A stretch of 64,000 nucleotides of DNA from an uncultured Bacilli bacterium (GCA_934700895.1 CAKUXV010000001.1:269289-333288), one strand, 5' to 3'. Numbered from the stretch's first letter, positions 1-26,993 are shown. Notes: a model not told the origin generated them from the sequence alone. Made by a program: numbers and translations.

Positions 1-2250
1 TTTGAGCGATGTTGTCAGGAAAGGACGGAGGTATATCACGCTCCGTTTGAAAAAGCTCTTCGCAAGTTATACGAAACTGCGGTATTTGGCGATGACCAAG
101 AATGGGTGGATTATTTGAAAAAGCACGATAACGCCTCCATTTCTACTCCACACGTTCGTTTTGAGAAGTTTCGTTTCGACGATCTGGCAGAAACGCGTAC
201 CGACCGGGTTTTCTTCCTTCGCGGCGATGAATTTTCTTCTCGTGGCCTAAACCGAAACGACCTTGTATTTGTTTACTTGACTCAAGGCGCGGAAGAACAT
301 GACCGACAAGGGGAAATCGCTTTGAGGCTAGATAAAACTACGCGCGATGAGATGGTTATCGAACAGGTTTTATTGCCGTATGAAAGCAATCATATCGATG
401 AACTTGCTTATCCATCCTTGACCCAATATCAATTGCTATTGGCTTCTAGGGAACAATTGCCACACGCTTTTGTTGGTTCGGCAGGAACGGGAAAGACGAT
501 TCTATCTTTGAAAGAAACCCTGGATTTAGGGGACGTCAATAAGCGAGTCCTCTATTTGACCTATCAAAAAGACCTCAAGAATTTTGCCGAGAAGAAACTA
601 GAAGAGCTCCACGCGAGAAATGTGGAGACCCATACCTGGAAAACGTTATGCCGGTCTCTCAATCTTCCTCAATCAGATTGTATGGACGACAAAAGCGATT
701 TCGAACGTTTCTTCCGTCTTTTGGAAGAGAGGAACAATCGTCTATATCGCCGTGTAGCCAACTGTTTTGAAGGCAGCAAAGAAGATGATTGCCTCGTTTG
801 CTATTCCTTTTTCCGAGGGGTGTTAGAAGGCTTAAGCACCGATGTTAATCCAACATCCGATATTCTTTCCTTGCCCGTTTTCCTTGAACGCACGAAGAAG
901 GAAGAAGGCTTTAGTTTAGAACAAAAACAAGCCATCTACGAAGTCGGAAAGGCCTATGAAAACCATTTAAAGACACAAAAGAGAACGACGGATAACCGCC
1001 TCGCCCATGAATTGCTTGACCACGTCAATGATCTTGAAGTATATGACGCCATAGTCATCGATGAATACCAAGATCTTTCGGAGATTCAATTTGAAGCCGT
1101 GTGTTCGCTGCTCAATCACGAATATCCATTGGATTTGCTTAACCTCTATTTATATGGGGATGACAACCAAGCCATCAATCCAACGATTTTCGACGTGAAG
1201 GATGCGAAACGCATCGTAAAGAAATGCTTTGGAAACCAAGCAAACCTTTATGTCTCGAACCTAAATGACAGCTATCGAAGCGGGCCGAACCTCGTTGGAT
1301 ACATTAATGAAGTCTCCAAAATTCGTAGAAAAGCCATTGGGGCTCGCAATGCGGAAGTCGATTCCATTCAAGAAGTCACAAAGCGCGAGGATGAGGAAGA
1401 CGTCTTCGTTTCCCTGATTCAAAACAAGGAGAGTTTCGAAAAGCTTTTAAATGCAGTTTCCATTTCCAATCGCGATTGCGTGTTCTTGTTTCCCGATGCA
1501 AGGATGCGAAACGACTATCAAAGAAAATACCAAAAAAGGTATCCGGAATTTGTGGAACATTCATTCCTAAGCGTTGGGAATGCCAAAGGAAGAGAATGGG
1601 ATTCCTGTGTTCTTGTTGATTTCTTTTCCTCTTCAAAAAAGACTTTTGAATCCATGCTTGGAGAAGAAAGAAAAGGGAAGCACAGCACCTTGCATCGCAT
1701 GCTATTCAATCGGTACTACGTTGCCTTAACTAGAGCCAAGAATCGAATTGTGATTTTCGAATCGAACGCACATGGAATTATCGAAGAAGAATTGCTTGCA
1801 GGATTACGGAAACTCCAGTCTGAAAAAGAAGTGCTTTCCTACTTCAAAGGAACCATTGACCCAAGCCATTGGATGGAAGAAGGGGACAACCGTTTTAATC
1901 GAGACGAATTCGAAGATGCCATTCGGGCTTATTCTCGAGCTGGTGATTTCCAAGATGCAAAATCAAAAATCCAAATTTGCCGTCAATTCCTTTTGGCGTC
2001 TGAAAATGCGCTCCCTTATCCAGAAACGGTTCGGCTATATTTGAACCATACTAAATTACACTTGCTAGGAAACTACTATCAAGAACATGGGGAAGAAGAA
2101 AAGAAACAATTCCTTCGCTCCTTATTCACGGACCCTCCCGATCCGGCAATACTTTCTCAAGACTATATAACTTTGCTTCCAACCTTTACGGAAGCGGAGA
2201 AAAAATTCTATTTTTCCCGATTGCTAAAAGATTATAAATTGACATTATAA
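1..2250 (+). CDS. UvrD-like superfamily-1 DNA helicase with a C-terminal helical/TPR-like region. The 5' end is partial: the reading frame is open to position 1 and the listed ORF start at 106 is only the first in-frame GTG.
   Basis: Walker A GSAGTGKT, motif II DEYQDLS, motif III LYGDDNQAI, motif VI YVALTRAKNRIVIF. I translated positions 1-105 in the same frame and found no stop codon. Confidence 0.7.
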   Translation, partial: FERCCQERTEVYHAPFEKALRKLYETAVFGDDQEWVDYLKKHDNASISTPHVRFEKFRFDDLAETRTDRVFFLRGDEFSSRGLNRNDLVFVYLTQGAEEHDRQGEIALRLDKTTRDEMVIEQVLLPYESNHIDELAYPSLTQYQLLLASREQLPHAFVGSAGTGKTILSLKETLDLGDVNKRVLYLTYQKDLKNFAEKKLEELHARNVETHTWKTLCRSLNLPQSDCMDDKSDFERFFRLLEERNNRLYRRVANCFEGSKEDDCLVCYSFFRGVLEGLSTDVNPTSDILSLPVFLERTKKEEGFSLEQKQAIYEVGKAYENHLKTQKRTTDNRLAHELLDHVNDLEVYDAIVIDEYQDLSEIQFEAVCSLLNHEYPLDLLNLYLYGDDNQAINPTIFDVKDAKRIVKKCFGNQANLYVSNLNDSYRSGPNLVGYINEVSKIRRKAIGARNAEVDSIQEVTKREDEEDVFVSLIQNKESFEKLLNAVSISNRDCVFLFPDARMRNDYQRKYQKRYPEFVEHSFLSVGNAKGREWDSCVLVDFFSSSKKTFESMLGEERKGKHSTLHRMLFNRYYVALTRAKNRIVIFESNAHGIIEEELLAGLRKLQSEKEVLSYFKGTIDPSHWMEEGDNRFNRDEFEDAIRAYSRAGDFQDAKSKIQICRQFLLASENALPYPETVRLYLNHTKLHLLGNYYQEHGEEEKKQFLRSLFTDPPDPAILSQDYITLLPTFTEAEKKFYFSRLLKDYKLTL

Positions 2251-2266
2251 TAGGAGTAAATTTATT

Positions 2267-2725
2267 ATGAATGAAGTAGAAAAGAAAGAACCAATTAACG
2301 ATCTTAAAAAAGACTATGTTGATCGTGTCTTTTCCAAGGCTGTTGAAGGACTTGAAACATTAAGCGAATCCTATCAAAACATTTCCCAAATGGAGACAGA
2401 ACTTGTTACTAGAATTGAAAGGGTAGAGACTGCGTCATCTTCCATCCAGTCTCAAATTGAATCTCTAGGAAACGACGTAACTCGTTTTGAAAACGTGGTT
2501 TCGGAATTTCAAAAAACGCTTTCAAAGATTGAAGACCTTTCATCTAGTCTTAACAAAATCTTGGAAAAATTGTCGGTGGCCGATTTGCACGATTTAAGCA
2601 ATAAAATTGATGAGACAAAAGAAGCATTTGAACGCGAGGAAAAGAAAAACCGCAAAAACGAAGATAAAGTTGCAAAACCTGCTTCGAACTTCGGCAAAAA
2701 CCTAATTAAAAAGAAAAGAAGATAA
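2267..2725 (+). CDS. Hypothetical coiled-coil protein with a K/R-rich C-terminal tail.
   Basis: AGGAG ribosome-binding site 8 nt upstream. Heptad-like, E/K/L/S-rich sequence. No recognisable catalytic motif. Confidence 0.5.
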   Translation: MNEVEKKEPINDLKKDYVDRVFSKAVEGLETLSESYQNISQMETELVTRIERVETASSSIQSQIESLGNDVTRFENVVSEFQKTLSKIEDLSSSLNKILEKLSVADLHDLSNKIDETKEAFEREEKKNRKNEDKVAKPASNFGKNLIKKKRR

Positions 2726-2742
2726 TTGCAAAACCCCTATTT

Positions 2743-3684
2743 ATGACTAGAGATCCAGCTGTAGTTTCATACACCATGTCCCATATCCGTTCTAAGAACA
2801 CCGGAATAGAAAAAACTTTGCGCAAAGCCCTGACGGAAAAAGGGGTTCGATATCGTTTGTATTCTTCCAAGGTATTTGGTCATCCCGATATTGTTTTGCA
2901 GCGTTATCGTATTGCTATTTTTTGTGATTCTGAATTTTGGCATGGTTTTCACTTTGCGGAAAATAAAGCGAAGATCAAAACCAATACCTCATATTGGATT
3001 CCAAAGATAGAACGGAACATTGTCCGTGACCAAGAGGTGAACAAAGAGCTTCAAAGACAAGGCTATGAGATTTTGAGGTTCTGGGGGAATGAGATCGAAA
3101 AATCCCTGGATGAGGTCGTAGATAAAATCCTATTGGTTATTGAGAAAAGGAAATGGGTATATAACCAGATTCAATCCATTCATGAATTGACAACATTGGT
3201 ATATATAGAAAAAGAAGACTCGTATCTCATGCTTCATCGAGTAAAGAAAAAACATGATTTAAATCAGGGAAAATGGATTGGAGTAGGGGGCCATATTGAA
3301 AAAGGTGAAACAATACTAGATTGTGTTAAACGCGAGGTTAAAGAGGAAACTAGTTTAAATTTAACCAAGGCTAAATATTTGGGCAAAATCCATTTTTTAA
3401 ACGACGCATACCCGCCGGAAGTGATGTATTTGTATAAGGGGTTATCCTTTGAAGGAAATCTGACTGATTGCAATGAGGGCGATCTTCAATGGGTTAAGAA
3501 AAAAGATATTTTGAATTTGGAATTATGGGAAGGCGACCGTGTATTTTTGCCTTTGCTTGATTCGGATTTATCTGCTCCATTTACCTTGGATCTTGTTTAT
3601 AAAAATGGGAAACTTGCGGATGTAATAGGTCCATATTTCCCACCAAAAAATAAGAAGAAAACAAAGGCTAAAAAAGCCAATTAG
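2743..3684 (+). CDS. Fusion protein: N-terminal Vsr-like (very-short-patch-repair type) endonuclease domain and C-terminal NUDIX (MutT-like) hydrolase domain.
   Basis: N-terminus HIRSKNTGIEKTLRKAL...PDIVLQRYRIAIFCDSEFWHGF resembles the Vsr core. C-terminus has a Nudix box GGHIEKGETILDCVKREVKEETSL. Confidence 0.7.
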   Translation: MTRDPAVVSYTMSHIRSKNTGIEKTLRKALTEKGVRYRLYSSKVFGHPDIVLQRYRIAIFCDSEFWHGFHFAENKAKIKTNTSYWIPKIERNIVRDQEVNKELQRQGYEILRFWGNEIEKSLDEVVDKILLVIEKRKWVYNQIQSIHELTTLVYIEKEDSYLMLHRVKKKHDLNQGKWIGVGGHIEKGETILDCVKREVKEETSLNLTKAKYLGKIHFLNDAYPPEVMYLYKGLSFEGNLTDCNEGDLQWVKKKDILNLELWEGDRVFLPLLDSDLSAPFTLDLVYKNGKLADVIGPYFPPKNKKKTKAKKAN

Positions 3685-5069
3685 CGGAAGCGATATTTCC
3701 CTTTCCCTTTCCCTTTTATAGCCTTAATTTTTTTGCTGCTGCACAACTTTTTAACAATGGAAGTTGCGGTTGCCGGAGAGACTTGAGTTGCCTCCAAAAT
3801 TTCGGTTCGACCAAATACCTCATCTTTGTTTTTAACATAGAAGTCGCCTAGCGAGTCAGCAATTTCATCTTTAAAGAATGGGCGGATCGAATCTGCAAAT
3901 GCTTTAGATTCTTTGCTACGTTCTTTCTTTTCAATTGATCTTTGCAAACTCTTTTGCTCTTTGAAGGAAATACGAGCTTTTGTTACTTGGGTTTCCGTTT
4001 CTTCATGATATTCTGCAGCGGGTAGTTTCCTTTCACATAACGTTGTTTGAACGAACTCTAAGCCTTTTAGTGATCCCTTGCCGATTAAGAAAAAGTATTT
4101 TTCAATCAGAGGGTGTCTAGGATACGACTTCCCATTTTGCGCCCCGTAGCCCATTAAACCAGGGTTGGTTATTTCGTAATAGTCTTGTGAAACGGTCGTT
4201 AGCAAAGGTGACTTGGATCCGAAATCCATATTTTCCAAAGCGTTGATTAGCGTCTCTTCGAATACTTCGCAACTTTTTTGTTCTTTTAGGGCTGGAAGGG
4301 TGGACTCCGCAATTTTACTAACGAACTCAAAATAGGAAAAAAGCCCGCCTTCAAAGCTAGAATCGCCGGAAATAAACTCATTTAAGCCCTCGTATTTGCG
4401 ATTGAGAAGTCGTATTGCAAGAGAATGCCATGGATAGACGCTTGTAATCGAGCTATCGCTTCCAAACATCAAAAGTCCAGATTTCGTCGGATGAATTTGG
4501 CCATTAATCTCTTTTGCAGCTCTAATTTTTTGCAAGAAAACTGTATCCTTATCAAGAACCCATTGATTATGAAATTCATGGAAACTCTTCCGGTACTTTT
4601 TAAAGGAATCCGTCAATAATGCTGTGGCATCCAGAGATAAGATTGCCTTTGTATCTGAAGCAAATCCATCCGCGTTTTCTTCCATGGATTCGATAGCAGA
4701 TTCGCTGCAAATTTGGTTTCCAGTTTCCGTTCTTAGGAAGGCTCTGTTTCGATAAAAGATTGGTTTTTGTTCTGGCTTAGCTTCCGGAATGATTAACGTT
4801 AATCCGAGCTTCCCGGAGTCTTTTTCGTAAATGAAATTTTCTTGCGATAGAATATTTCTATTTATCTTTTGAGCATCGTTAAGAATATTTTGAATTTGAT
4901 CAACGATTTCATCAACATTTTTTAGCCCTTGGAACTTTTTACATCCTTCAATGACTTTATATCCGAATGTCAAAGTTCCACCATGTGAATTTGCAAGGGC
5001 AGAATACGTCTCACAAAACAATGGTTCCCATCGGAATTCTGTATCGATAAATACAATATTTTCTTCCAT
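3681..5069 (-). CDS. Putative DNA-binding regulator of the COG2865 type: N-terminal AlbA_2/Schlafen-like domain, central ATPase-like region, C-terminal winged HTH.
   Basis: N-terminal ...ALANSHGGTLTFGY... matches the AlbA_2 signature. The C-terminus is basic and HTH-like. It has the same architecture as the degraded copy at 25682-26993. Confidence 0.6.
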   Translation of the reverse strand: MEENIVFIDTEFRWEPLFCETYSALANSHGGTLTFGYKVIEGCKKFQGLKNVDEIVDQIQNILNDAQKINRNILSQENFIYEKDSGKLGLTLIIPEAKPEQKPIFYRNRAFLRTETGNQICSESAIESMEENADGFASDTKAILSLDATALLTDSFKKYRKSFHEFHNQWVLDKDTVFLQKIRAAKEINGQIHPTKSGLLMFGSDSSITSVYPWHSLAIRLLNRKYEGLNEFISGDSSFEGGLFSYFEFVSKIAESTLPALKEQKSCEVFEETLINALENMDFGSKSPLLTTVSQDYYEITNPGLMGYGAQNGKSYPRHPLIEKYFFLIGKGSLKGLEFVQTTLCERKLPAAEYHEETETQVTKARISFKEQKSLQRSIEKKERSKESKAFADSIRPFFKDEIADSLGDFYVKNKDEVFGRTEILEATQVSPATATSIVKKLCSSKKIKAIKGKGKGKYRFR

Positions 5070-5837: not shown

Positions 5838-5909
5838 CGCGTTTTATAAAAGAAAATTAAAATGGGGCGACTTTGCAGGTCGTCCCATATTTTGTTTAGG
5901 ATTTGTTTT

Positions 5910-7241
5910 TTAGTCCAATTGGGCCCAGAAGGTATTGAAGGGCGGGACCTCGATCGTCTCGGCCTTGCGGTATTTCTCTACCAATTCCGGATTGACGTAT
6001 TTGGACGGAACATAGATTTCATAAACGTATTCGTTAAACCAAGCCGCGTCCATGATGTAGAAGCCTTTTTTGCCATTTTCGGTGCCCCAGGTATTTTCGA
6101 CTTTGTAACGATTGGGCTTTTCGTTTTCGTCAAGATTGACTCCAACGAAGGTCATCGCGTGAGAAACGCAGGCGGCACGATAATCCAATTTCTCGCCTTT
6201 GCTTAATTGAGGATGGGTTTGGAACAAATCATCCGGGCAGAAAATGTCTTTTACGAGATATCCTTTCTTGCGGAGCGATTCTTGGCAGACCTCGGCAGCG
6301 AACCACACGGGCTTTTTGTCTTTCAAGGCGGCGATTAAGGCAGCTTTCAATTCGTCAAGTTTGACATTAAAGAAACTGACTTCAGCGCCTTCCACGACGT
6401 TATTGACCAAATTGCAGCCGTATTTCACGTAGGGCTTGTAGTCTTGAATGGGCGCATGGCATAAGCAAACATAATCGTCTAAGTCTTCCTGAATATAGGT
6501 GGAGAAGAACTCCTGAGGCGTGCAGGCGGGTAAACGCTTGAAGTGATTGTCCTTGTCCGTATATTCGAAGGCGAATGACTTGGGCGGGACGCCGATAGAA
6601 GCGATGAGAATTCGGTGGATTTCCCCTAGCATTTTTTCCTTCATCTCGCGCAACTTATCCATGCCGAGGTTTTTGTTTTCGCGGAGGATTTTAAGATCGC
6701 TGGCAAGGATGAAGTGAAGGTAACGATTGAGTTCCGTCGTATCTTGGGAAACCGCCCCGTCTTCCATCAAGGAAGAAGGGATGACGCCGTATTTATGGAC
6801 CAAGTTCACGAACATCGTCCAATGTCCGCCGTCTTCAATCGCGCTATCGAGGAGGAAGCAAACTTCGCGGTCGTCTAGAGGCTTATCCAAACGTTCCAAA
6901 TTCTTTTCCAAGAAGAAGTTGGCTTTTTCGAGCTTATCGTAGAATTGAAGATACGCTTGGCTGAGCTCAATGTTTTTTACGCCGAATTTTTCAAATAAGA
7001 TGGTGCGAATGACGTTGAGGCCCGCAAACATCCAGCAACGTCCGGAGTGGCGTTGGTTCGTGATTTCGCCCGCATCGACTTCGATGGAGAAAACGTTCGG
7101 GTTTTCAGCGATTTTGGTGTCGTTGATGCAGCTGGCGACGATCCCGTTTTCGCGAATCGTACGCCGAGCAACGCGCAAAGAGGGGTCTTCTAAGTCTTTT
7201 TCAAAGTTTTGAAGGTCTAAGGGAGTAATAGAAGTGTTCAT
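5910..7241 (-). CDS. pepC: Aminopeptidase C (bleomycin-hydrolase family, peptidase C1B).
   Basis: Active-site region QRHSGRCWMFAGLNVIR. Length and N-terminus are typical of PepC. Confidence 0.85.
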   Translation of the reverse strand: MNTSITPLDLQNFEKDLEDPSLRVARRTIRENGIVASCINDTKIAENPNVFSIEVDAGEITNQRHSGRCWMFAGLNVIRTILFEKFGVKNIELSQAYLQFYDKLEKANFFLEKNLERLDKPLDDREVCFLLDSAIEDGGHWTMFVNLVHKYGVIPSSLMEDGAVSQDTTELNRYLHFILASDLKILRENKNLGMDKLREMKEKMLGEIHRILIASIGVPPKSFAFEYTDKDNHFKRLPACTPQEFFSTYIQEDLDDYVCLCHAPIQDYKPYVKYGCNLVNNVVEGAEVSFFNVKLDELKAALIAALKDKKPVWFAAEVCQESLRKKGYLVKDIFCPDDLFQTHPQLSKGEKLDYRAACVSHAMTFVGVNLDENEKPNRYKVENTWGTENGKKGFYIMDAAWFNEYVYEIYVPSKYVNPELVEKYRKAETIEVPPFNTFWAQLD

Positions 7242-7381
7242 AAATGTTAAGTAGCCTTTCTTAAGTCCAACTAGGAATTATTGAGTGCCCACAAAAAAAG
7301 GCAAGCCATTTCGTCTTTTTGAAGACTAAAAAGAAAGGAAATCATCTTTCTTTTTTTGGGATTTCGTGTAACCTTTTAGCG

Positions 7382-8800
7382 ATGAAAGAAACGACTTCTT
7401 CGCCCTTGCCTTTGCTCCTAGGGTCTTTAACTTTGCTATTAGGCTCTTGCCGAATCAATCGGATTGACGGTTCTTCCGTATCCTTGCCCTCAACCTCTAG
7501 TTCCAGCCCCATCGGAGAGGAACAACCAACCCGTTGGGCTAAAATTCTTTTCGGAGCAGAAGCCCATACTTCCGTCGTCCCGATTCGGGCGGATGTTATC
7601 CAAACTTCCGAAATCCGCGTGGCTTCGATCGATGGGAGCCACAAATGCACCGGGGAATCGGGTCAAGCCCTCAAAATGGGCTCTGCCTCCGAGGCTGGCA
7701 CCCTTCAAATCGAGCTCTCGTCCTCGCTAAAGTGGTCTTCTGTTCGAGTTTTGGCCTTCCCCTATGAAGGAGAAGAACCCTGCAAATTAACGTTCAACCT
7801 TCGAGGCGAAGACTATACCTTGTCTTCCCGCTGCGCGGATTCGGAAGCGGCAAAAAAAGCCCTGAATCACCATGAGGACCTTTCTTGTTGGAGCGATGTC
7901 ACGGGGTTATACGGGAATGCCAATTCCTTTAGCTTAACGAGTCAAACCCGCGTTTACGTCGCGGGAATCGCCATCGAATTCATTGGTGGGACTAAGGAAG
8001 ATGGCACCGTTTCCAGTGATTCTTCTAATAGCAACTTCACTTCCAACAATACTTCCGCCAGTGAATCCACCTCCTCCGAGGATACGATTCCGGAAGAACC
8101 CTATACTCCCAGCGAACACCGAGACGAATGGGAAGTCTGGGCGAATGGGTATTACACCAATTATATTGATTTCTCCGCTTCGACGACCTTCCGTCTTTCT
8201 GCGACGGAATCCGAAGACGGTTTGACCGCGACCTGCTATTTCTATTCGGAAGAAAGAGAGCGTTTCGTGATTGGAGAAACTCTCCGCAAAGACGGTGTTT
8301 ATACGAATTCTAGCGAAGTCGCCCTTTATTACAACGCCTTCCGTGATTTGCCCAAGAATTATGGGTATTACACGAAGAAAAATACGAATGCCGTGATGAA
8401 GGAGCTTTACCCTCTCTACGGAGATTCCAGCCGCCTATATACGGACTATAGCAGGACCAATGGCTACGCCACCGTTCAGCCCGCTCTTAATATGCCGTCT
8501 GGATTTAAATATTACGAATTAGACCTCGCTTATGAGCCCAATAACGGCTATGCCTCCGCGGAAAAAGTCGATCGTTCTAGCGCTGGCAGAATCGTCATCT
8601 TCCCCTTTGGGACGAAGAATTATGGCGACGAACCTTATATCGTTAAAACCATCGACCATTACGCCCATTTCCGCGAATTCGCTAATTACTTGGACGGCTG
8701 GGGCGCCAATTACGATGGAGCCTCTAGCGATCTCGGCGATGGCAAAGTTTTGGGAGACTATTCCAAAGTCGGCCCCCTCGAAACGAGAACCGTCCGATAA
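7382..8800 (+). CDS. Exported lipoprotein with a Ser-rich linker and a C-terminal barnase-like (microbial RNase N1/T1/barnase family) ribonuclease domain. A TTG start at 7319 is an alternative.
   Basis: Signal peptide with lipobox LLGSC. The C-terminus aligns to the barnase catalytic region: YYELDL~WREADI, DRSSAGRIVIF~FRNSDRILY, KTIDHYAHF~KTTDHYQTF. Confidence 0.6.
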   Translation: MKETTSSPLPLLLGSLTLLLGSCRINRIDGSSVSLPSTSSSSPIGEEQPTRWAKILFGAEAHTSVVPIRADVIQTSEIRVASIDGSHKCTGESGQALKMGSASEAGTLQIELSSSLKWSSVRVLAFPYEGEEPCKLTFNLRGEDYTLSSRCADSEAAKKALNHHEDLSCWSDVTGLYGNANSFSLTSQTRVYVAGIAIEFIGGTKEDGTVSSDSSNSNFTSNNTSASESTSSEDTIPEEPYTPSEHRDEWEVWANGYYTNYIDFSASTTFRLSATESEDGLTATCYFYSEERERFVIGETLRKDGVYTNSSEVALYYNAFRDLPKNYGYYTKKNTNAVMKELYPLYGDSSRLYTDYSRTNGYATVQPALNMPSGFKYYELDLAYEPNNGYASAEKVDRSSAGRIVIFPFGTKNYGDEPYIVKTIDHYAHFREFANYLDGWGANYDGASSDLGDGKVLGDYSKVGPLETRTVR

Positions 8801-8859
8801 GTTTCATTAACTTTTATTCCCTATCGTGTATAATCCCTCTTGCTTCAGGAGGGATTTTT

Positions 8860-10602
8860 ATGTATTCCAATTCCCATTTGTCCGTTCTTCGCCAAGCCAT
8901 GAAGGAAAAAGGCATCAAGGCTTATTTGATGAAAACGGGCGACCCCCACAATTCGGAAGAGCCCGCTCCCTATTATTCGGCGGAACGTCGTTTCTTTTGC
9001 CCGTTTAGCGGCGATAACGCCTATGTGATCGTGACGGAAAAAGACGCGGTTTTGTTTAGCGATGGTCGCTTCATGTTATCGGCCAACGAGGAAATTAAGG
9101 GCACCCCCTATGCTTTTATCGAGCTTTATCGCCCTGGGAATCCTACTCCGGAAGAATATCTTCGCAAGAACGGTCTCTATCCGCTGGGCGTGGATTTTTC
9201 TTATCTTTCCCTCACTGATTTAAAAGAACTAAGAAAAGGGGGAGAAGTACAAGACGTTTCCTTCTTAAGTCTTATTGATGACCTCCCTTCCCTTTCTCAT
9301 GACCCCCTTTGGTCTTTTGATTCGCCCGCTTATCAAGACTATAACCACCTAGAGAAACTAGAAATCGTTCGGAGTGCCATGAAGGAAAAAGGCGTAGAAG
9401 CCCTTCTCATCACGACTTTGGACGACATCGCCTATTTGACCAACCTAAGGGGCAACGACCTCTTAAACACGCCTTTATTCTATTCCTACGCCTATTTGAC
9501 GCTTCATGAAGCCCATTTGTTCTTGGCTTCAGGGCGTTTGGAGCATCTAGAAGGCTATACCCTCCACGATTTAAGCGAAATCGCCCCTTTTGTTAAAGAA
9601 AGGGAAAACCTTTTGACTTGGGTGGATGAAAAGGAATGCAACGCTCGTTTGGCTTCATTGCTGCAAAATCCTTTTGACGCGGAAGTTCCTACCCGCTTAG
9701 AGAAGGCGGTCAAAGGACCCAAAGAAATCGAAAACATCATCTCCATCCAAGAAGAAGACGGGGTGGCCCTTTTGAAGTTCATCGATTTCCTCGATCGAGC
9801 AAAACCCGGCTTAACGGAATGGGAGGTTGTAGAAAAACTCCATGAATTCCGCGCGGAAGGGAAGCGTTTTCTCGACGAATCCTTCACCACGATTGCCGCG
9901 ATGGGCCCGAATGCTGCGATGATGCACTACGCCCCCACAGAGCAAATCTATGCCACCTGGGACGAAAATACGGTGGAATTGCTTTTAGATAGCGGAGGTC
10001 AGTATTTGGGAGGCACCACGGATACTACGAGAACCTTCTTGCTTGGCACCCCAAGCCCCGAATATATCCGCGATTACACCTTGACCCTTCGTTCGGTGAT
10101 CGCGCTTTCTGCCTGCGTTTTCCTCCAAGGGGCCAATGGCCAATGCATTGACATGATGGCAAGGGAAATCATGTGGAGGGAAGGGATGGACTATAAATGC
10201 GGAACCGGGCATGGCGTTGGCTATTTAAGCGTCGTCCACGAATCGCCCAACGGCTTCCGCTATCGTCCCGCCAAAGGCAAAAACGATGGAGCGAACATCG
10301 TTCCCGGCATGATCACGACCATCGAACCCGGCGTTTATAAGGCCAATAAGTACGGCATTCGCATCGAAAATAACCTTCTTTGCGTCCCCGCCTTCGTGAC
10401 TCCAGACGGCACATTCTACCGCTTCCAAACGATCACCTACGTTCCCATCGATACCAAAGCTTTGGATTTGACGTTATTAAGCGAAACGGATATCGCTTGG
10501 ATCAATGCCTATCATCAAGAGGTTTTTAAGCGCTTGTCGCCCAAGATAGAAGGGCGTCTGTTAGATGTTTTAAAAGAAAAGACGAAGCCCCTTTATCGAT
10601 AA
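8860..10602 (+). CDS. pepP: Xaa-Pro aminopeptidase (M24B; creatinase-like N-terminal domain plus M24 domain).
   Basis: GGAGGG ribosome-binding site. HGVGYLSVVHE motif and M24 metal-ligand pattern. About 580 aa. Confidence 0.85.
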   Translation: MYSNSHLSVLRQAMKEKGIKAYLMKTGDPHNSEEPAPYYSAERRFFCPFSGDNAYVIVTEKDAVLFSDGRFMLSANEEIKGTPYAFIELYRPGNPTPEEYLRKNGLYPLGVDFSYLSLTDLKELRKGGEVQDVSFLSLIDDLPSLSHDPLWSFDSPAYQDYNHLEKLEIVRSAMKEKGVEALLITTLDDIAYLTNLRGNDLLNTPLFYSYAYLTLHEAHLFLASGRLEHLEGYTLHDLSEIAPFVKERENLLTWVDEKECNARLASLLQNPFDAEVPTRLEKAVKGPKEIENIISIQEEDGVALLKFIDFLDRAKPGLTEWEVVEKLHEFRAEGKRFLDESFTTIAAMGPNAAMMHYAPTEQIYATWDENTVELLLDSGGQYLGGTTDTTRTFLLGTPSPEYIRDYTLTLRSVIALSACVFLQGANGQCIDMMAREIMWREGMDYKCGTGHGVGYLSVVHESPNGFRYRPAKGKNDGANIVPGMITTIEPGVYKANKYGIRIENNLLCVPAFVTPDGTFYRFQTITYVPIDTKALDLTLLSETDIAWINAYHQEVFKRLSPKIEGRLLDVLKEKTKPLYR

Positions 10603-11258: not shown

Positions 11259-11867
11259 ATGGATTGGAAGCTTATCGACGTTACCAAGGACACGAATCAT
11301 CGATTCCTCAATGAATACACCCTCCATTATGAGGTTTCTACGGGGAATGGAACTCGATCCTATGATTATTTCGTGGCTTCTAGAAACGAACCCGCTACGC
11401 TTCGCTCCATTACGCGCGATTATTCTCGCCCCGATGGGGTGGTGATGTGCCTTTATGAAATCGACCCAGCGACCCAAGAGGTTTCCGTTTTGTTCACCAA
11501 ACAATTCCGTCCTGCGTTAGGCGCCTATATGACTTCTTTCCCCGCAGGGCTGCTTGATCCCGAAGATCCCGATATGCTCGTTGCAGCTAAACGCGAGGCT
11601 AAAGAAGAAGCAGGGGTTGAAATCGATGACATAGAAATCCTTGCTCCGGCTTGCCCGACTTCCAGTGGGCTTTCCGATGAACTCGATGGTTTTATTTTGG
11701 CACGAATCGTGGGAAAAGAAGAAAAGAAGCTCGAGGATTTTGAGGATATTTCCACGCGCCTCGTCCCCTTGAAAGATGTCCCAGCGATGATGAAAGATCC
11801 CACCTATCATATCCCCCTTCCCGTCCGTCTTTGCCTCCATTACCTGTTAGAAAGATTTGCTCGATGA
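11259..11867 (+). CDS. NUDIX hydrolase (ADP-ribose pyrophosphatase-like).
   Basis: Nudix box GLLDPEDPDMLVAAKREAKEEAGV. Confidence 0.75.
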   Translation: MDWKLIDVTKDTNHRFLNEYTLHYEVSTGNGTRSYDYFVASRNEPATLRSITRDYSRPDGVVMCLYEIDPATQEVSVLFTKQFRPALGAYMTSFPAGLLDPEDPDMLVAAKREAKEEAGVEIDDIEILAPACPTSSGLSDELDGFILARIVGKEEKKLEDFEDISTRLVPLKDVPAMMKDPTYHIPLPVRLCLHYLLERFAR

Positions 11868-24738: not shown

Positions 24739-25635
24739 ATGCTTTGGCTTATTCTGGCATTAATCGCTGCTTTGGCGACTTCACTGACAACCATCTTTGC
24801 TAAAATCGGAATTAAGGATGTTCCTTCGGATTTTGCGACCTTTTTCCGCACCGGTATTGTTTTAGTTTGTGCCGCAGGGCTTTGTTTTATCACGGGCAGT
24901 TGGAACCAAGTCCCTAGCCTCACCCCGAGCAACTGGATATTCTTGGCCTTATCTGGTCTATGCACGGGTTGTTCTTGGCTTTGCTATTACCGCGCTTTGC
25001 AACTTTCTAGCGTCAACCGCGTTGCTCCGATTGATAAATCGAGTTTCTTGCTAACAAGCATCCTGTTCCTTATTTTCTTCTTTAATGACGTAACTAAAGG
25101 CGGCGATTCCTTGGTGATCGGAATGTTATTTACCTCTATGGTTTTGATGTTAGGAGGCACCCTTCTTATGGCGTGGCCGAAAAAAGAAGGGGGACGTGTA
25201 TCGAAAAAGTGGATTTTCTATGCGGTGGGATCCGCGGTGTTTGCTAGTCTCGTTTCTTTGTTCGTGAAGATTGGCTTGCAAGGAATATCATCGGATTTAG
25301 GGACGTTTTTAAGAACGGTCGTTGTCTTGATTTTCTCAGGCGCGATTGCTTTGGCAAGAAAACAAATGAAAGGGCTTGAGGCCGTCTCCCCCAAAAGTTG
25401 GGTTTTTCTGACGTTATCTGGTTTAGCGACCGGAGTTGCATGGCTTGGCGAATATTATGCGTTGAACATGGAAGGAGTAAACCCCGTCGCAGTTAATGCG
25501 ATAGGGAAACTTTCCATTCTACTGACAATGCTATTCTCCGCCACGGTCCTGAAAGAGCGTTTTTCGTGGAAATCGTTGCTTGGGTTAGGACTATTGACTG
25601 GCGGAATTATCCTGGTTGTCGTGTTTAGCCTTTGA
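24739..25635 (+). CDS. EamA/DMT-family transporter.
   Basis: Ten TM helices in two EamA repeats. Confidence 0.75.
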   Translation: MLWLILALIAALATSLTTIFAKIGIKDVPSDFATFFRTGIVLVCAAGLCFITGSWNQVPSLTPSNWIFLALSGLCTGCSWLCYYRALQLSSVNRVAPIDKSSFLLTSILFLIFFFNDVTKGGDSLVIGMLFTSMVLMLGGTLLMAWPKKEGGRVSKKWIFYAVGSAVFASLVSLFVKIGLQGISSDLGTFLRTVVVLIFSGAIALARKQMKGLEAVSPKSWVFLTLSGLATGVAWLGEYYALNMEGVNPVAVNAIGKLSILLTMLFSATVLKERFSWKSLLGLGLLTGGIILVVVFSL

Positions 25636-25681
25636 ACATGAACAAATTGTGGTTTATTTCTTATGGATGGTGGTTACGAAT

Positions 25682-26993
25682 ATGGAATATGCAGAAAACG
25701 AAACAACGGAATTGAAGCCCATTTACGTGGATGACATCAAGAAAGAAATTATCGCCTTTGCTAACACTTTTGGCGGAACTATTTATATTGGGGTAGAAGA
25801 CAATGGTCGTATTTGCGGAGTAGAAGATGTTGACGCGGTGATGCAGCAGGTCATGAACGCTGCTCGCGATGGGATTAAGCCAGACGTCACGCTGTTTATG
25901 CACGTTCGTGATATTGATATTGACGAGGGCAAAACCATTGTCGCGATAGAAGTGCAATGTGGCGCTCATAAACCTTATTATTTGGCTTCCAAAGGGCTAC
26001 GTCCTGTAGGCGTTTTTGTTCGGCAGGGCACATCTTCCGTTCCTGCGTCGAAAACGGCGATCCGCAAAATGATTAAAGAAACGGACGGCGATAATTTTGA
26101 AGACATGCGTTCCTTGAATCAGGAATTGACTTTTCCAAGATGCAGGAGGAATTTCAAAAAAGAAATCTGAGCTTAGCGGATGTTCAAATGAAAACGCTTG
26201 GGCTCATCGACTCGGATGGATTGTACACCAATTTGGCATTGCTTCTATCAGACCAATGCCCTCACATAATCAAAGCGGCTACCTTTGGCGGGGTGAATCA
26301 GGAGAAATTCCAAGATCGGCGTGAATTTACCGGTTCGTTGCTTAAGCAGCTAGATGACGCCTACGCTTATTTGGATATGCGAAATCAAAATGTGGCTACA
26401 TTCAAAGGCCTTCATCGTACGGATCACCGCGATTATCCCGAAACGGCCATTCGGGAAGCATTATTGAACGCCATTGTCCATCGTGACTATTCCGTTCTGG
26501 CCAGCACACTTTTAAGCGTTTATTCCAATCGCATTGAATTGCTTTCTGTCGGAGGGTTAGCTGGAGGCGTGTCTTACGACGACATCATGCTAGGGGTGTC
26601 TTATTGTCGTAATAAGAAACTTGCCAATATTTTCTATCGAATGGACTTAATCGAAGCTTATGGGACCGGCATCAATAAAATCATGTCGTCCTATGAGGTT
26701 CTCGCCGAAAACCAGAAATCATCATCACCTCCGGCGCCTTTAAATTCATTTTGCCAAATCGGGGAACTCCCGTGAATACGGTGAAAGATGACGTGGCCTC
26801 CTATATCGATTCGGAACGTGAAAACACCGTTTGTTCCCTTTTGTCGGATCATTTACCCCACGCCCGCTTAGAAATAGAAAAAGCGTTGGGGGCATCCACC
26901 TCTACCACGCGTAGAATCCTTCAAAAGTTGATGGATGAAGGGAAAATCTCCTCAACGGGCGCAACAAAAAGCGTGATGTATTTCGTGAAATAA
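25682..26993 (+). pseudogene. Frameshifted paralog of the AlbA_2/ATPase-like/wHTH regulator. It is split over three reading frames (25616-26170, 26140-26775, 26751-26993).
   Basis: Three consecutive ORFs in frames 2, 1 and 3 together rebuild one domain series: AlbA_2 (KKEIIAFANTFGGTIYIGVEDNG), a HATPase_c_4-like region (LLNAIVHRDYS...GTGINKI) and a winged HTH. Confidence 0.6.

Follow-up and report, generated by a model that had tools for sequence, protein, structure and literature searches.

A Vsr-NUDIX fusion gene, its tandem-domain partner and a UvrD-like helicase: a candidate genome-maintenance cluster in gut Bacilli

We examined a 64-kb window (the whole stretch of DNA analyzed here) from an uncultured Bacilli bacterium (GCA_934700895.1 CAKUXV010000001.1:269289-333288), which begins within a gene for a UvrD-like helicase of superfamily 1 (SF1) and continues with genes for a small coiled-coil protein and for a fusion of a Vsr-type mismatch endonuclease with a NUDIX hydrolase (Vsr::NUDIX), followed by a convergent gene for an AlbA_2 (Schlafen-type) protein (Table 1). 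The first three genes point in the same direction, with 16 nt between the helicase stop codon and the coiled-coil gene and 17 nt between the latter and Vsr::NUDIX; no terminator-like site was found on the plus strand between bases 1 and 3684, and the three genes are probably co-transcribed. The stop codons of the convergent Vsr::NUDIX and AlbA_2 genes overlap. The initial annotation of this DNA had described a UvrD-like SF1 helicase with its N-terminus off the window, a 152-aa coiled-coil protein with a KR-rich tail, and a Vsr::NUDIX fusion, and all three descriptions proved correct: frame 1 is open from base 1 and preceded by 492 further codons, the open reading frame (ORF) of the second protein ends in ...NLIKKKRR, and the fusion scores above the cut-offs of Pfam and of NCBIfam model TIGR00632.

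The part of the helicase gene lying upstream of the window was found on a near-identical contig from the same species (L001), where window base 1 corresponds to position 7735 (~99% identity) and the complete gene, at 6259-9984, encodes 1241 aa. An exact look-up placed the coiled-coil protein on 23 contigs, and the ten places listed are human-gut metagenomes, from at least 10 different samples. The order of genes does not vary among them: a Sel1-like gene comes first, followed by two ABC exporters, a divergent GNAT, the helicase (1234 or 1241 aa), the coiled-coil gene, Vsr::NUDIX, AlbA_2, the gene for a 199-aa protein (p199), and peptidases. The upstream sequence, with its divergent GNAT gene and two ABC exporters, gives no sign that the helicase is part of a standard repair operon, which would have spoken against the earlier reading.

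Table 1. Features of the window, with positions counted from its first base.
Feature	Position (nt)	Strand	Basis
Helicase, 3′ part (749 of 1241 codons)	1..2250	+	Frame 1 open from base 1, stop at 2250
Domain B of helicase	1..410	+	Small alpha/beta domain in structure model
SF1A helicase core	415..1800	+	Pfam UvrD-helicase, invariant motifs, Foldseek
Helicase C-terminal all-helical (TPR-like) domain	1810..2250	+	Model helices 608-748, pLDDT ~90; conserved in family
Coiled-coil protein, 152 aa, basic tail	2267..2725	+	ORF, weak coiled-coil-type matches
Vsr::NUDIX fusion, 313 aa	2743..3684	+	Pfam, NCBIfam, alignment of 25 fusions
12-nt unit AAAAATAAGAAG, variable copy number, in Lys-rich tail of Vsr::NUDIX	3640..3665	+	DNA alignment
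AlbA_2 (Schlafen-type) protein, 462 aa, C-terminal region resembling a winged helix-turn-helix (wHTH)	3681..5069	-	Pfam, phrog_12156
p199, 199 aa	5238..5837	+	Family of 36 in locus clustering
Strong terminator-like hairpin (12-bp stem, then T-run)	5862..5888	+	Between p199 and convergent peptidase gene
Frameshifted distant AlbA_2 paralog	25616..26775	+	AlbA_2 ORF 25616-26170, HATPase_c_4 ORF 26140-26775

The two halves of Vsr::NUDIX are clearly recognizable. The Vsr domain (aa 1-135) matches Pfam PF03852 with E 7e-23 (80.7 bits against a cut-off of 27) and TIGR00632 with 126.3 bits (cut-off 97.85), and the MTH1-like NUDIX domain (aa 148-290, with the Nudix box at aa 183-205) matches its Pfam family with E 8e-17 and is followed by a Lys-rich tail. 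Profile comparison of the Vsr domain with the PDB yielded E. coli Vsr (1cw0, E 3e-21), an enzyme that nicks T:G mismatches on the 5′ side of the T. The Vsr residues D49, H67, F65/W66, W85 and D96 are present in the window protein, and the equivalents of E. coli E25, D51, H69, F67/W68, W86 and D97 are invariant in the alignment of 25 fusions. E. coli Vsr binds zinc through Cys66, His71, Cys73 and Cys117; the residues aligned with them are E, Y/F, E-type and K-type, and the Vsr half probably represents a zinc-less subfamily.

In the NUDIX half, the Nudix box GX5EX7REUXEEXGU is intact, with G183, E189, R197, E198, E201 and E202 invariant in the 25 fusions and its penultimate G replaced by S in the window protein, most other fusions having G. 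Its closest solved relatives are structures of MTH1/NUDT1 (5otn, 5hzx and 1iry; E ~1e-18 to 1e-16), hydrolases of this type being known to remove damaged or modified deoxynucleoside triphosphates (dNTPs); it is 44-50% identical to stand-alone genes of Lachnospira and Pusillibacter annotated as 8-oxo-dGTP diphosphatase, and its matches to pyrimidine dNTP/CTP pyrophosphohydrolases are weaker than those to MTH1. Base recognition in MTH1 involves N33, W117, D119 and D120. Of these, the fusion keeps W117 and D120 in an aligned W-x-x-D element and has I/V and G in place of N33 and D119, so that the substrate is not readable from the sequence. A homolog search gave 853 matches, the best 120 of which are all fusions of 294-334 aa with 52-98% identity; our search of the literature found no description of a Vsr-NUDIX fusion. 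Length variation within the species comes from the Lys-rich tail, where the unit AAAAATAAGAAG, encoding K-N-K-K, is present once in the window (313 aa) and twice in L001 (317 aa; site 11380-11405), as seen in a DNA alignment of the window with L001, L002 and L003. The gene is uncalled in L002, which might be taken for a disruption; this was rejected, as the assembler has placed a run of Ns (a scaffold gap) at the repeat.

To see which neighbors accompany the fusion, we scanned one genome per species, obtaining 39 loci with Vsr::NUDIX and 41 in which a closely related Vsr stands alone, and clustered the ORFs called in all of them; 38 of the fused loci were informative. In 15 of the 38, a helicase of 1200-1320 aa and a coiled-coil gene of 129-155 aa lie upstream of Vsr::NUDIX. 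Another 17 have in this place a protein of ~500 aa that is homologous solely to residues 9-445 of the helicase (hhalign probability 100, E 1.6e-58), a region consisting of two related domains, A and A′, joined by a linker; the stop codon of this shorter form usually overlaps or abuts the Vsr::NUDIX start. Neither protein is found in the remaining six. A tandem A-domain protein is thus immediately upstream in 32 of 38 genomes with fused Vsr, versus none of 41 with stand-alone Vsr, the upstream genes of which code for lipoproteins or GNAT. The ~265-aa genes beside stand-alone Vsr (families f16 and f66) were considered as reduced versions of the tandem-domain protein and discarded, since they encode unrelated lipoproteins. 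The tightest partner of Vsr::NUDIX is therefore the N-terminal tandem A-domain module and not the helicase core.

In 15 species-level genomes, the helicase, coiled-coil and Vsr::NUDIX genes follow each other in this order and are all co-directional, with helicase identity down to 28-35%, and in one locus (L011) the three-gene block sits within different flanks and lacks AlbA_2. Of the four-gene block originally proposed, these three genes stand, and AlbA_2 falls outside the conserved set. In a neighbor-joining tree of the Vsr domain, helicase-bearing and adaptor-only forms are interleaved, which suggests repeated loss of the segment comprising domain B, the SF1 core, the C-terminus and the coiled-coil gene, although the number of losses is uncertain in a tree built on 145 columns. 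Vsr::NUDIX is the stable core of the locus, and the A module links this core to the helicase pair.

The architecture of the helicase was deduced from an alignment of 14 family members and two AlphaFold2 models. The 1241-aa protein consists of domain A (aa 1-150), a disordered linker (150-320), domain A′ (320-445), an acidic linker, domain B (485-630), the SF1 core (640-1090) and a helical C-terminal domain. The window-encoded part scores 27.6 bits against the UvrD-helicase Pfam cut-off of 23, and its model (predicted local distance difference test, pLDDT, 89.6; predicted template modeling score, pTM, 0.84) retrieved UvrD, PcrA, Rep and UvrD1 as top Foldseek matches (E ~1e-12), with HelD at rank 13 (E 1.3e-10). 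Its motifs are intact, including the Q-motif (aa 142 of the window part), Walker A GSAGTGKT (nt 475-498), motif II DEYQD (nt 1060-1074), III GDDNQ, IV SYRSG and VI VALTRAK, and the SF1 motif residues are invariant in family alignments of 14 and 45 members. The protein is a UvrD-like SF1A helicase with the full motif set and the UvrD/PcrA fold; orthology to UvrD, PcrA, RecB or helicase IV is rejected, its scores being far below all NCBIfam equivalog cut-offs, among them those of helicase IV, the best match (32.6 bits versus 543; E 3e-8), and of PcrA (16.9 versus 911).

The additional domains are less familiar. In the model, domain B has three helices, four strands and then further helices. Its residues K56, R69, H100 and Q103 (window-part numbering) are invariant among the 14 family members, and in the 45-sequence alignment, which adds distant relatives, invariance holds for R69 and H100 and almost for K56. 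From this topology and the invariant K, R and H, a RelE/ParE-like and a PD-(D/E)xK-like fold are candidates for the domain. Domain B has no sequence match in Pfam or PDB profiles and none in PADLOC or PHROGs, and is also found in shorter SF1 helicases without domain A. Domains A and A′ are two copies of a ~130-aa domain (mutual hhalign probability 98.3, E 1e-14). The AlphaFold2 model of domain A reaches pLDDT 91.4 and finds nothing significant among PDB folds (best E 0.25) and borderline matches only, to unnamed Firmicute-phage proteins, in BFVD; no match was seen in Pfam, PDB sequence profiles, PADLOC or PHROGs. The disordered linker between the copies carries 2-5 copies of a basic F..SKKKPxNLG motif, which in the general form F-x(2-7)-KK-x(1-3)-[ND]-L-[GDN] occurs 60 times in 28 proteins versus 2.8 ± 1.9 times in shuffled sequences. 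The helicase family is small and divergent: exhaustive HMMER found 539 of 1.84 billion representative proteins at E<=1e-3, and the full architecture is shared by about 24 clusters. A word-indexed search, with either the full helicase or the 14-sequence alignment, returned three clusters only, probably because low-complexity words saturated the candidates; the family was recovered instead through exhaustive HMMER and the genome scan seeded with Vsr::NUDIX.

The 152-aa protein gave only weak coiled-coil-type matches. Its gene lies downstream of the helicase in all complete loci of the helicase type and never accompanies the helicase-less form, with the exception of L020. In that locus (L020:7693-9457), the upstream region of which is rearranged, a coiled-coil-like ORF is directly upstream of Vsr::NUDIX, and neither a helicase nor an A-domain gene lies within 7.6 kb. 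The helicase and coiled-coil genes also travel as a pair without Vsr: two loci (L094:5525-10184 and L098:2878-7350) contain a distant helicase that keeps domains A and B, followed by a coiled-coil gene of 143-152 aa, and a third (L095:2757-5829) has a shorter relative with domain B and the SF1 core, lacking domain A, together with a 165-aa coiled-coil gene. The hidden Markov model (HMM) of the coiled-coil protein finds the small proteins of the L094 and L095 types with E 4e-10 and 4e-7, at high compositional bias. Because they occur in these Vsr-less settings, the helicase and its coiled-coil partner form a two-gene unit with a distribution of its own. In L094 and L098, the pair lies within the nusA-infB operon region, with rbfA on one side and tilS/truB on the other, a placement that hints at a link to transcription or translation. 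The neighbors in L095 are a resolvase, Fic and an AAA_13 ATPase, a mobile or defense-like context unlike that of the window.

The chromosomal setting of the cluster was then compared across genomes. Sel1-like, ABC, ABC, an optional GNAT and then Vsr are found in this order in almost all loci, with Vsr either fused or stand-alone, over ~75 species, so that vsr occupies a deeply conserved chromosomal neighborhood. Identity to L013 is 85-95% for the cluster genes and 87-97% for the flanking ones, and identity to L018 and L026 is 61-62% for Vsr::NUDIX, as against 58-68% for the ABC exporters and 60% for the M24 peptidase. Across species, the GC content of the cluster at third codon positions (GC3) follows that of the host, from 0.27 to 0.80. 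Only in the species group of the window (L001, L012-L015) is GC3 of the four genes lower (0.33-0.44) than that of the flanks (0.50-0.63), and we rejected recent horizontal replacement as the cause, because the identities between sister species match those of the flanks. Searches of IMG/VR gave Vsr-only matches and no fusion, no PLSDB record covered at least 80% of it, and it was absent from phage collections including INPHARED; for the helicase, phage genomes yielded nothing and plasmids only matches to its core, 23-25% identical. No integrase or transposase is located near the cluster. These genes are vertically inherited at a fixed chromosomal position and do not constitute a mobile accessory locus, and the term “islet” that had been applied to them has to be dropped: the neighborhood is syntenic over ~75 species, its arrangement is the same in all ten listed places, the divergence of the cluster is flank-like, and the fusion is missing from the phage and plasmid collections.

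Such a setting bears directly on the suggestion that the cluster might be a defense locus. It would then be a chromosomally fixed anti-phage or anti-plasmid nuclease-helicase system like Hhe, ARMADA or Gabija, in which the helicase senses foreign or damaged DNA, Vsr cuts it and NUDIX depletes a nucleotide that the phage needs. Helicases combined with Vsr-type nucleases are known as defense systems, namely Hhe (10.1101/2022.06.16.496414) and ARMADA/Druantia, in which YprA helicases occur with Vsr nucleases (PMC12458937). Consistent with this possibility are also weak partial PADLOC matches (GajB, AbiO and Nhi for the helicase, PDC-S07 and PDC-S72 elsewhere in the locus), the fast evolution and repeated loss of the helicase, the resolvase, Fic and AAA_13 genes adjoining its relative in L095, the weak resemblance of domain A to uncharacterized phage proteins, and the low GC3 of the four genes in the window species. 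PADLOC, however, detected no complete system, even with the upstream genes included, bearing out the earlier statement that no named system matches this combination, and there is no GajA-type partner. Moreover, the Vsr is canonical and diverges as slowly as its housekeeping flanks, its position is fixed in a deeply syntenic core region, the arrangement does not vary among the ten listed places and their metagenome samples, and phages and plasmids in the collections searched do not carry the fusion. A role in defense thus appears to us very unlikely, and, of the two options initially put forward, a repair module or a defense locus, the former fits better.

We therefore favor, tentatively and with slightly less than even confidence, the reading that the helicase, coiled-coil and Vsr::NUDIX genes form a lineage-specific genome-maintenance operon of gut Bacilli, combining mismatch repair and nucleotide cleaning, a function proposed from the domains of its products. 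In such an operon, Vsr::NUDIX would limit mutation in two ways: its Vsr half would start repair by nicking deamination-type mismatches, and its NUDIX half would hydrolyze aberrant dNTPs, thereby cleaning the nucleotide pool. The upstream A-linker-A′ protein would serve as an adaptor for Vsr::NUDIX, and the UvrD-like helicase fused to it, together with the coiled-coil partner, could unwind the nicked strand for resynthesis, a role that may be likened to that of MutL-loaded UvrD in methyl-directed mismatch repair. The helicase/coiled-coil pair is separable, its apparent repeated loss leaving the adaptor beside Vsr::NUDIX.

Several observations weigh against this proposal. The zinc-ligand positions of E. 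coli Vsr are not conserved, very-short-patch repair in E. coli is not known to need a helicase, and no C5-cytosine methyltransferase is evident in the window (see below). The helicase evolves much faster than Vsr::NUDIX (35% versus 61% identity), the GC3 of the four genes departs from that of the flanks in the window's species group, and the association is incomplete on either side, with Vsr::NUDIX occurring without any partner in L030 and L040 and beside a lipoprotein gene in L041, L043 and L048, and the helicase pair occurring without Vsr in L094, L098 and L095. In addition, since the whole region is syntenic, adjacency may have been inherited rather than selected.

The last of these points leads to an alternative without any functional coupling, in which the genes would be neighbors merely through conserved gene order, Vsr::NUDIX acting alone as a repair and pool-sanitizing enzyme and the helicase pair serving a separate housekeeping role in nucleic-acid metabolism, perhaps with RNA polymerase or translation, as for HelD and PcrA. 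It would account for the synteny over ~75 species, the Vsr-less pair between rbfA and truB, the existence of Vsr::NUDIX without either partner and the very different evolutionary rates, and agrees with the structural match to HelD and with helicase IV being the best NCBIfam match, albeit far below cut-off. It does not readily explain why the A module stays directly upstream, with overlapping or abutting codons, after several apparently independent losses of the helicase, why it is never beside stand-alone Vsr, or why the three-gene order survives the changed flanks in L011. We regard this alternative as unlikely, though deserving of serious consideration. At the other extreme, the genome-maintenance reading may be extended to a self-contained “nick and unwind” mismatch-repair pathway of small-genome gut Bacilli, in which a zinc-less Vsr-MTH1-like fusion would be recruited by a new-fold tandem-domain adaptor, with its motif-rich disordered linker, in the matchmaker role of MutL, and the fused helicase with its coiled-coil partner would supply strand removal; in this complete form, the proposal is rather improbable.

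A further possibility, compatible with the genome-maintenance reading and specifying the source of the lesions, is that another part of the genome encodes a C5-cytosine methyltransferase, either an orphan or a restriction-modification enzyme, with which Vsr::NUDIX is paired in classical very-short-patch repair, its NUDIX half removing 5-methyl-dCTP or a related nucleotide. Membership in the Vsr family is in line with this, as are the matches of the NUDIX half to pyrimidine dNTP/CTP pyrophosphohydrolases. Word statistics on both strands of the whole window, under a maximal-order Markov model, revealed that GATC is scarce (390 observed versus 698 expected, z about -16) and that GGCC, GCGC, CCGG and AGCT, typical targets of 5-methylcytosine (m5C) methyltransferases, are under-represented (z -8 to -9.5), a bias suggestive of past restriction-modification or m5C methylation in the lineage, although palindrome avoidance has other causes. 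On the other hand, no ORF of the window has the PCQ/ENV motif pair of C5-cytosine methyltransferases, and the immediate neighbors of Vsr at ~75 loci are transporters, lipoproteins, GNAT and the A-domain protein, with no family in the usual methyltransferase position, their flanks not having been searched specifically. We consider a methyltransferase partner possible but somewhat doubtful.

The AlbA_2 gene is an unrelated, sporadic neighbor outside the conserved cluster: among related loci it is present only in the close relatives of the window (L012-L015) and in L019 and L022. It had been annotated as an AlbA_2/ATPase/wHTH protein convergent to the others. The orientation is as described; of the three parts of COG2865-type proteins (AlbA_2, HATPase_c_4 and a C-terminal wHTH), AlbA_2 is just above cut-off (SLFN_AlbA_2, 26.9 bits versus 25.3), the wHTH signal is weak, and the 462-aa copy shows neither HATPase_c_4 nor any other ATPase domain of Pfam. 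Along its entire length this protein is matched by phrog_12156 (“DNA helicase”; E 1.5e-24), which places members of the family in phages or prophages as well, and its C-terminus is the part matching PADLOC candidate PDC-S72. The degraded paralog that had been reported elsewhere in the window was located (Table 1): its AlbA_2 ORF (E 4e-20) and HATPase_c_4 ORF (E 1e-13) are in different frames, and family-HMM matches are collinear in three frames, tblastn being too insensitive to detect it. In most related genomes, p199 directly follows Vsr::NUDIX on the same strand, the AlbA_2 gene intervening in the window; its family (36 members) is found with fused Vsr::NUDIX and not beside stand-alone Vsr, has no relatives in Pfam, PADLOC, NCBIfam or PDB, and may be an additional component of the cluster. 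Many of the genomes with related loci also keep, a few kb farther downstream, a second NUDIX gene that stands alone (202 aa, window 11259-11867) and adjoins a His_Phos_1 gene. Records of the clade are named “Bacilli bacterium”, “uncultured Mollicutes bacterium”, “Candidatus Enteromonas” and “Erysipelotrichaceae bacterium”. Several GenBank contigs of “cleanbin” metagenome-assembled genomes with Bacilli-type synteny (L025, L070, L075, L079 and others) are labeled Escherichia coli, Bacteroides uniformis, Parasutterella, Alistipes shahii and the like, names that look wrong.

Vsr::NUDIX fusions form hundreds of 90%-identity clusters in gut metagenomes and are annotated only as “DNA mismatch endonuclease Vsr”, so that a likely repair enzyme has gone unrecognized. 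If mismatch incision is indeed coupled to pool cleaning, the fusion would be a compact mutation-avoidance device in abundant uncultured Bacilli of the human and animal gut. What would be new is very-short-patch-type repair with a fused nucleotide sanitizer, a novel adaptor and an accessory helicase, as far as function may be read from domain content; the architecture and the adaptor domain are themselves new and widespread in gut Bacilli. The partner protein brings a confidently modeled domain without a solved structural relative, along with a conserved repeated linear motif, and the repeated loss of the helicase and coiled-coil genes amounts to a natural experiment. For genome scans, the locus illustrates that a helicase beside a nuclease is insufficient to call a defense locus, the context here being a core, vertically inherited cluster.

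Comparison with known systems shows that the cluster is not Gabija, Hhe or ARMADA. GajB models are the best PADLOC matches of the helicase, with E 1e-11 to 1e-4, but they are partial, covering the region of motifs II-IV (174 residues in the best match, E 1e-11), and, unlike in Gabija, there is no GajA-like OLD/TOPRIM gene among the four genes or upstream of them, nor is the context a defense island. The Hhe model is not among the 25 best PADLOC matches of the helicase, and the Vsr::NUDIX protein is matched only by a generic Vsr model and, in its NUDIX half, by PDC-S07. Hhe and the ARMADA/Druantia type likewise pair a Vsr-fold nuclease with a helicase, of superfamily 1 or 2. In them, the nuclease is the C-terminal domain of the helicase protein, whereas here the two are encoded by separate genes; helicases of the Hhe and ARMADA type are Upf1-like or YprA-like, and that of the window is a UvrD-like SF1A enzyme. 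In contrast to those systems, the Vsr of the window is canonical, slowly evolving and core-chromosomal.

Among repair enzymes, E. coli Vsr (1cw0/1vsr) belongs to the same family as the N-terminal 135 aa of the fusion, in which the catalytic and intercalating residues are kept. It differs in lacking the fused NUDIX domain and Lys-rich tail and in having the zinc ligands, and, unlike E. coli Vsr, the fusion has no adjacent dcm-type methyltransferase that we could find, its linkage being to a tandem-domain protein of a new kind that may or may not be joined to a helicase. The E. coli enzyme depends on stimulation by MutS/MutL and on Pol I. The NUDIX half resembles enzymes of the MTH1/MutT type, with its Nudix box intact, and differs from them in being fused to an endonuclease. 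The helicase shares the fold and motif set of UvrD, PcrA and Rep, at 12-13% identity to solved structures; unlike them, it has an N-terminal domain A, linker and A′, a domain B, a C-terminal helical domain and a dedicated coiled-coil partner gene. In the repair pathway of MutL and UvrD, finally, the helicase acts after MutH, and the unwinding proposed here, from a nick made by a mismatch endonuclease, would parallel that step.

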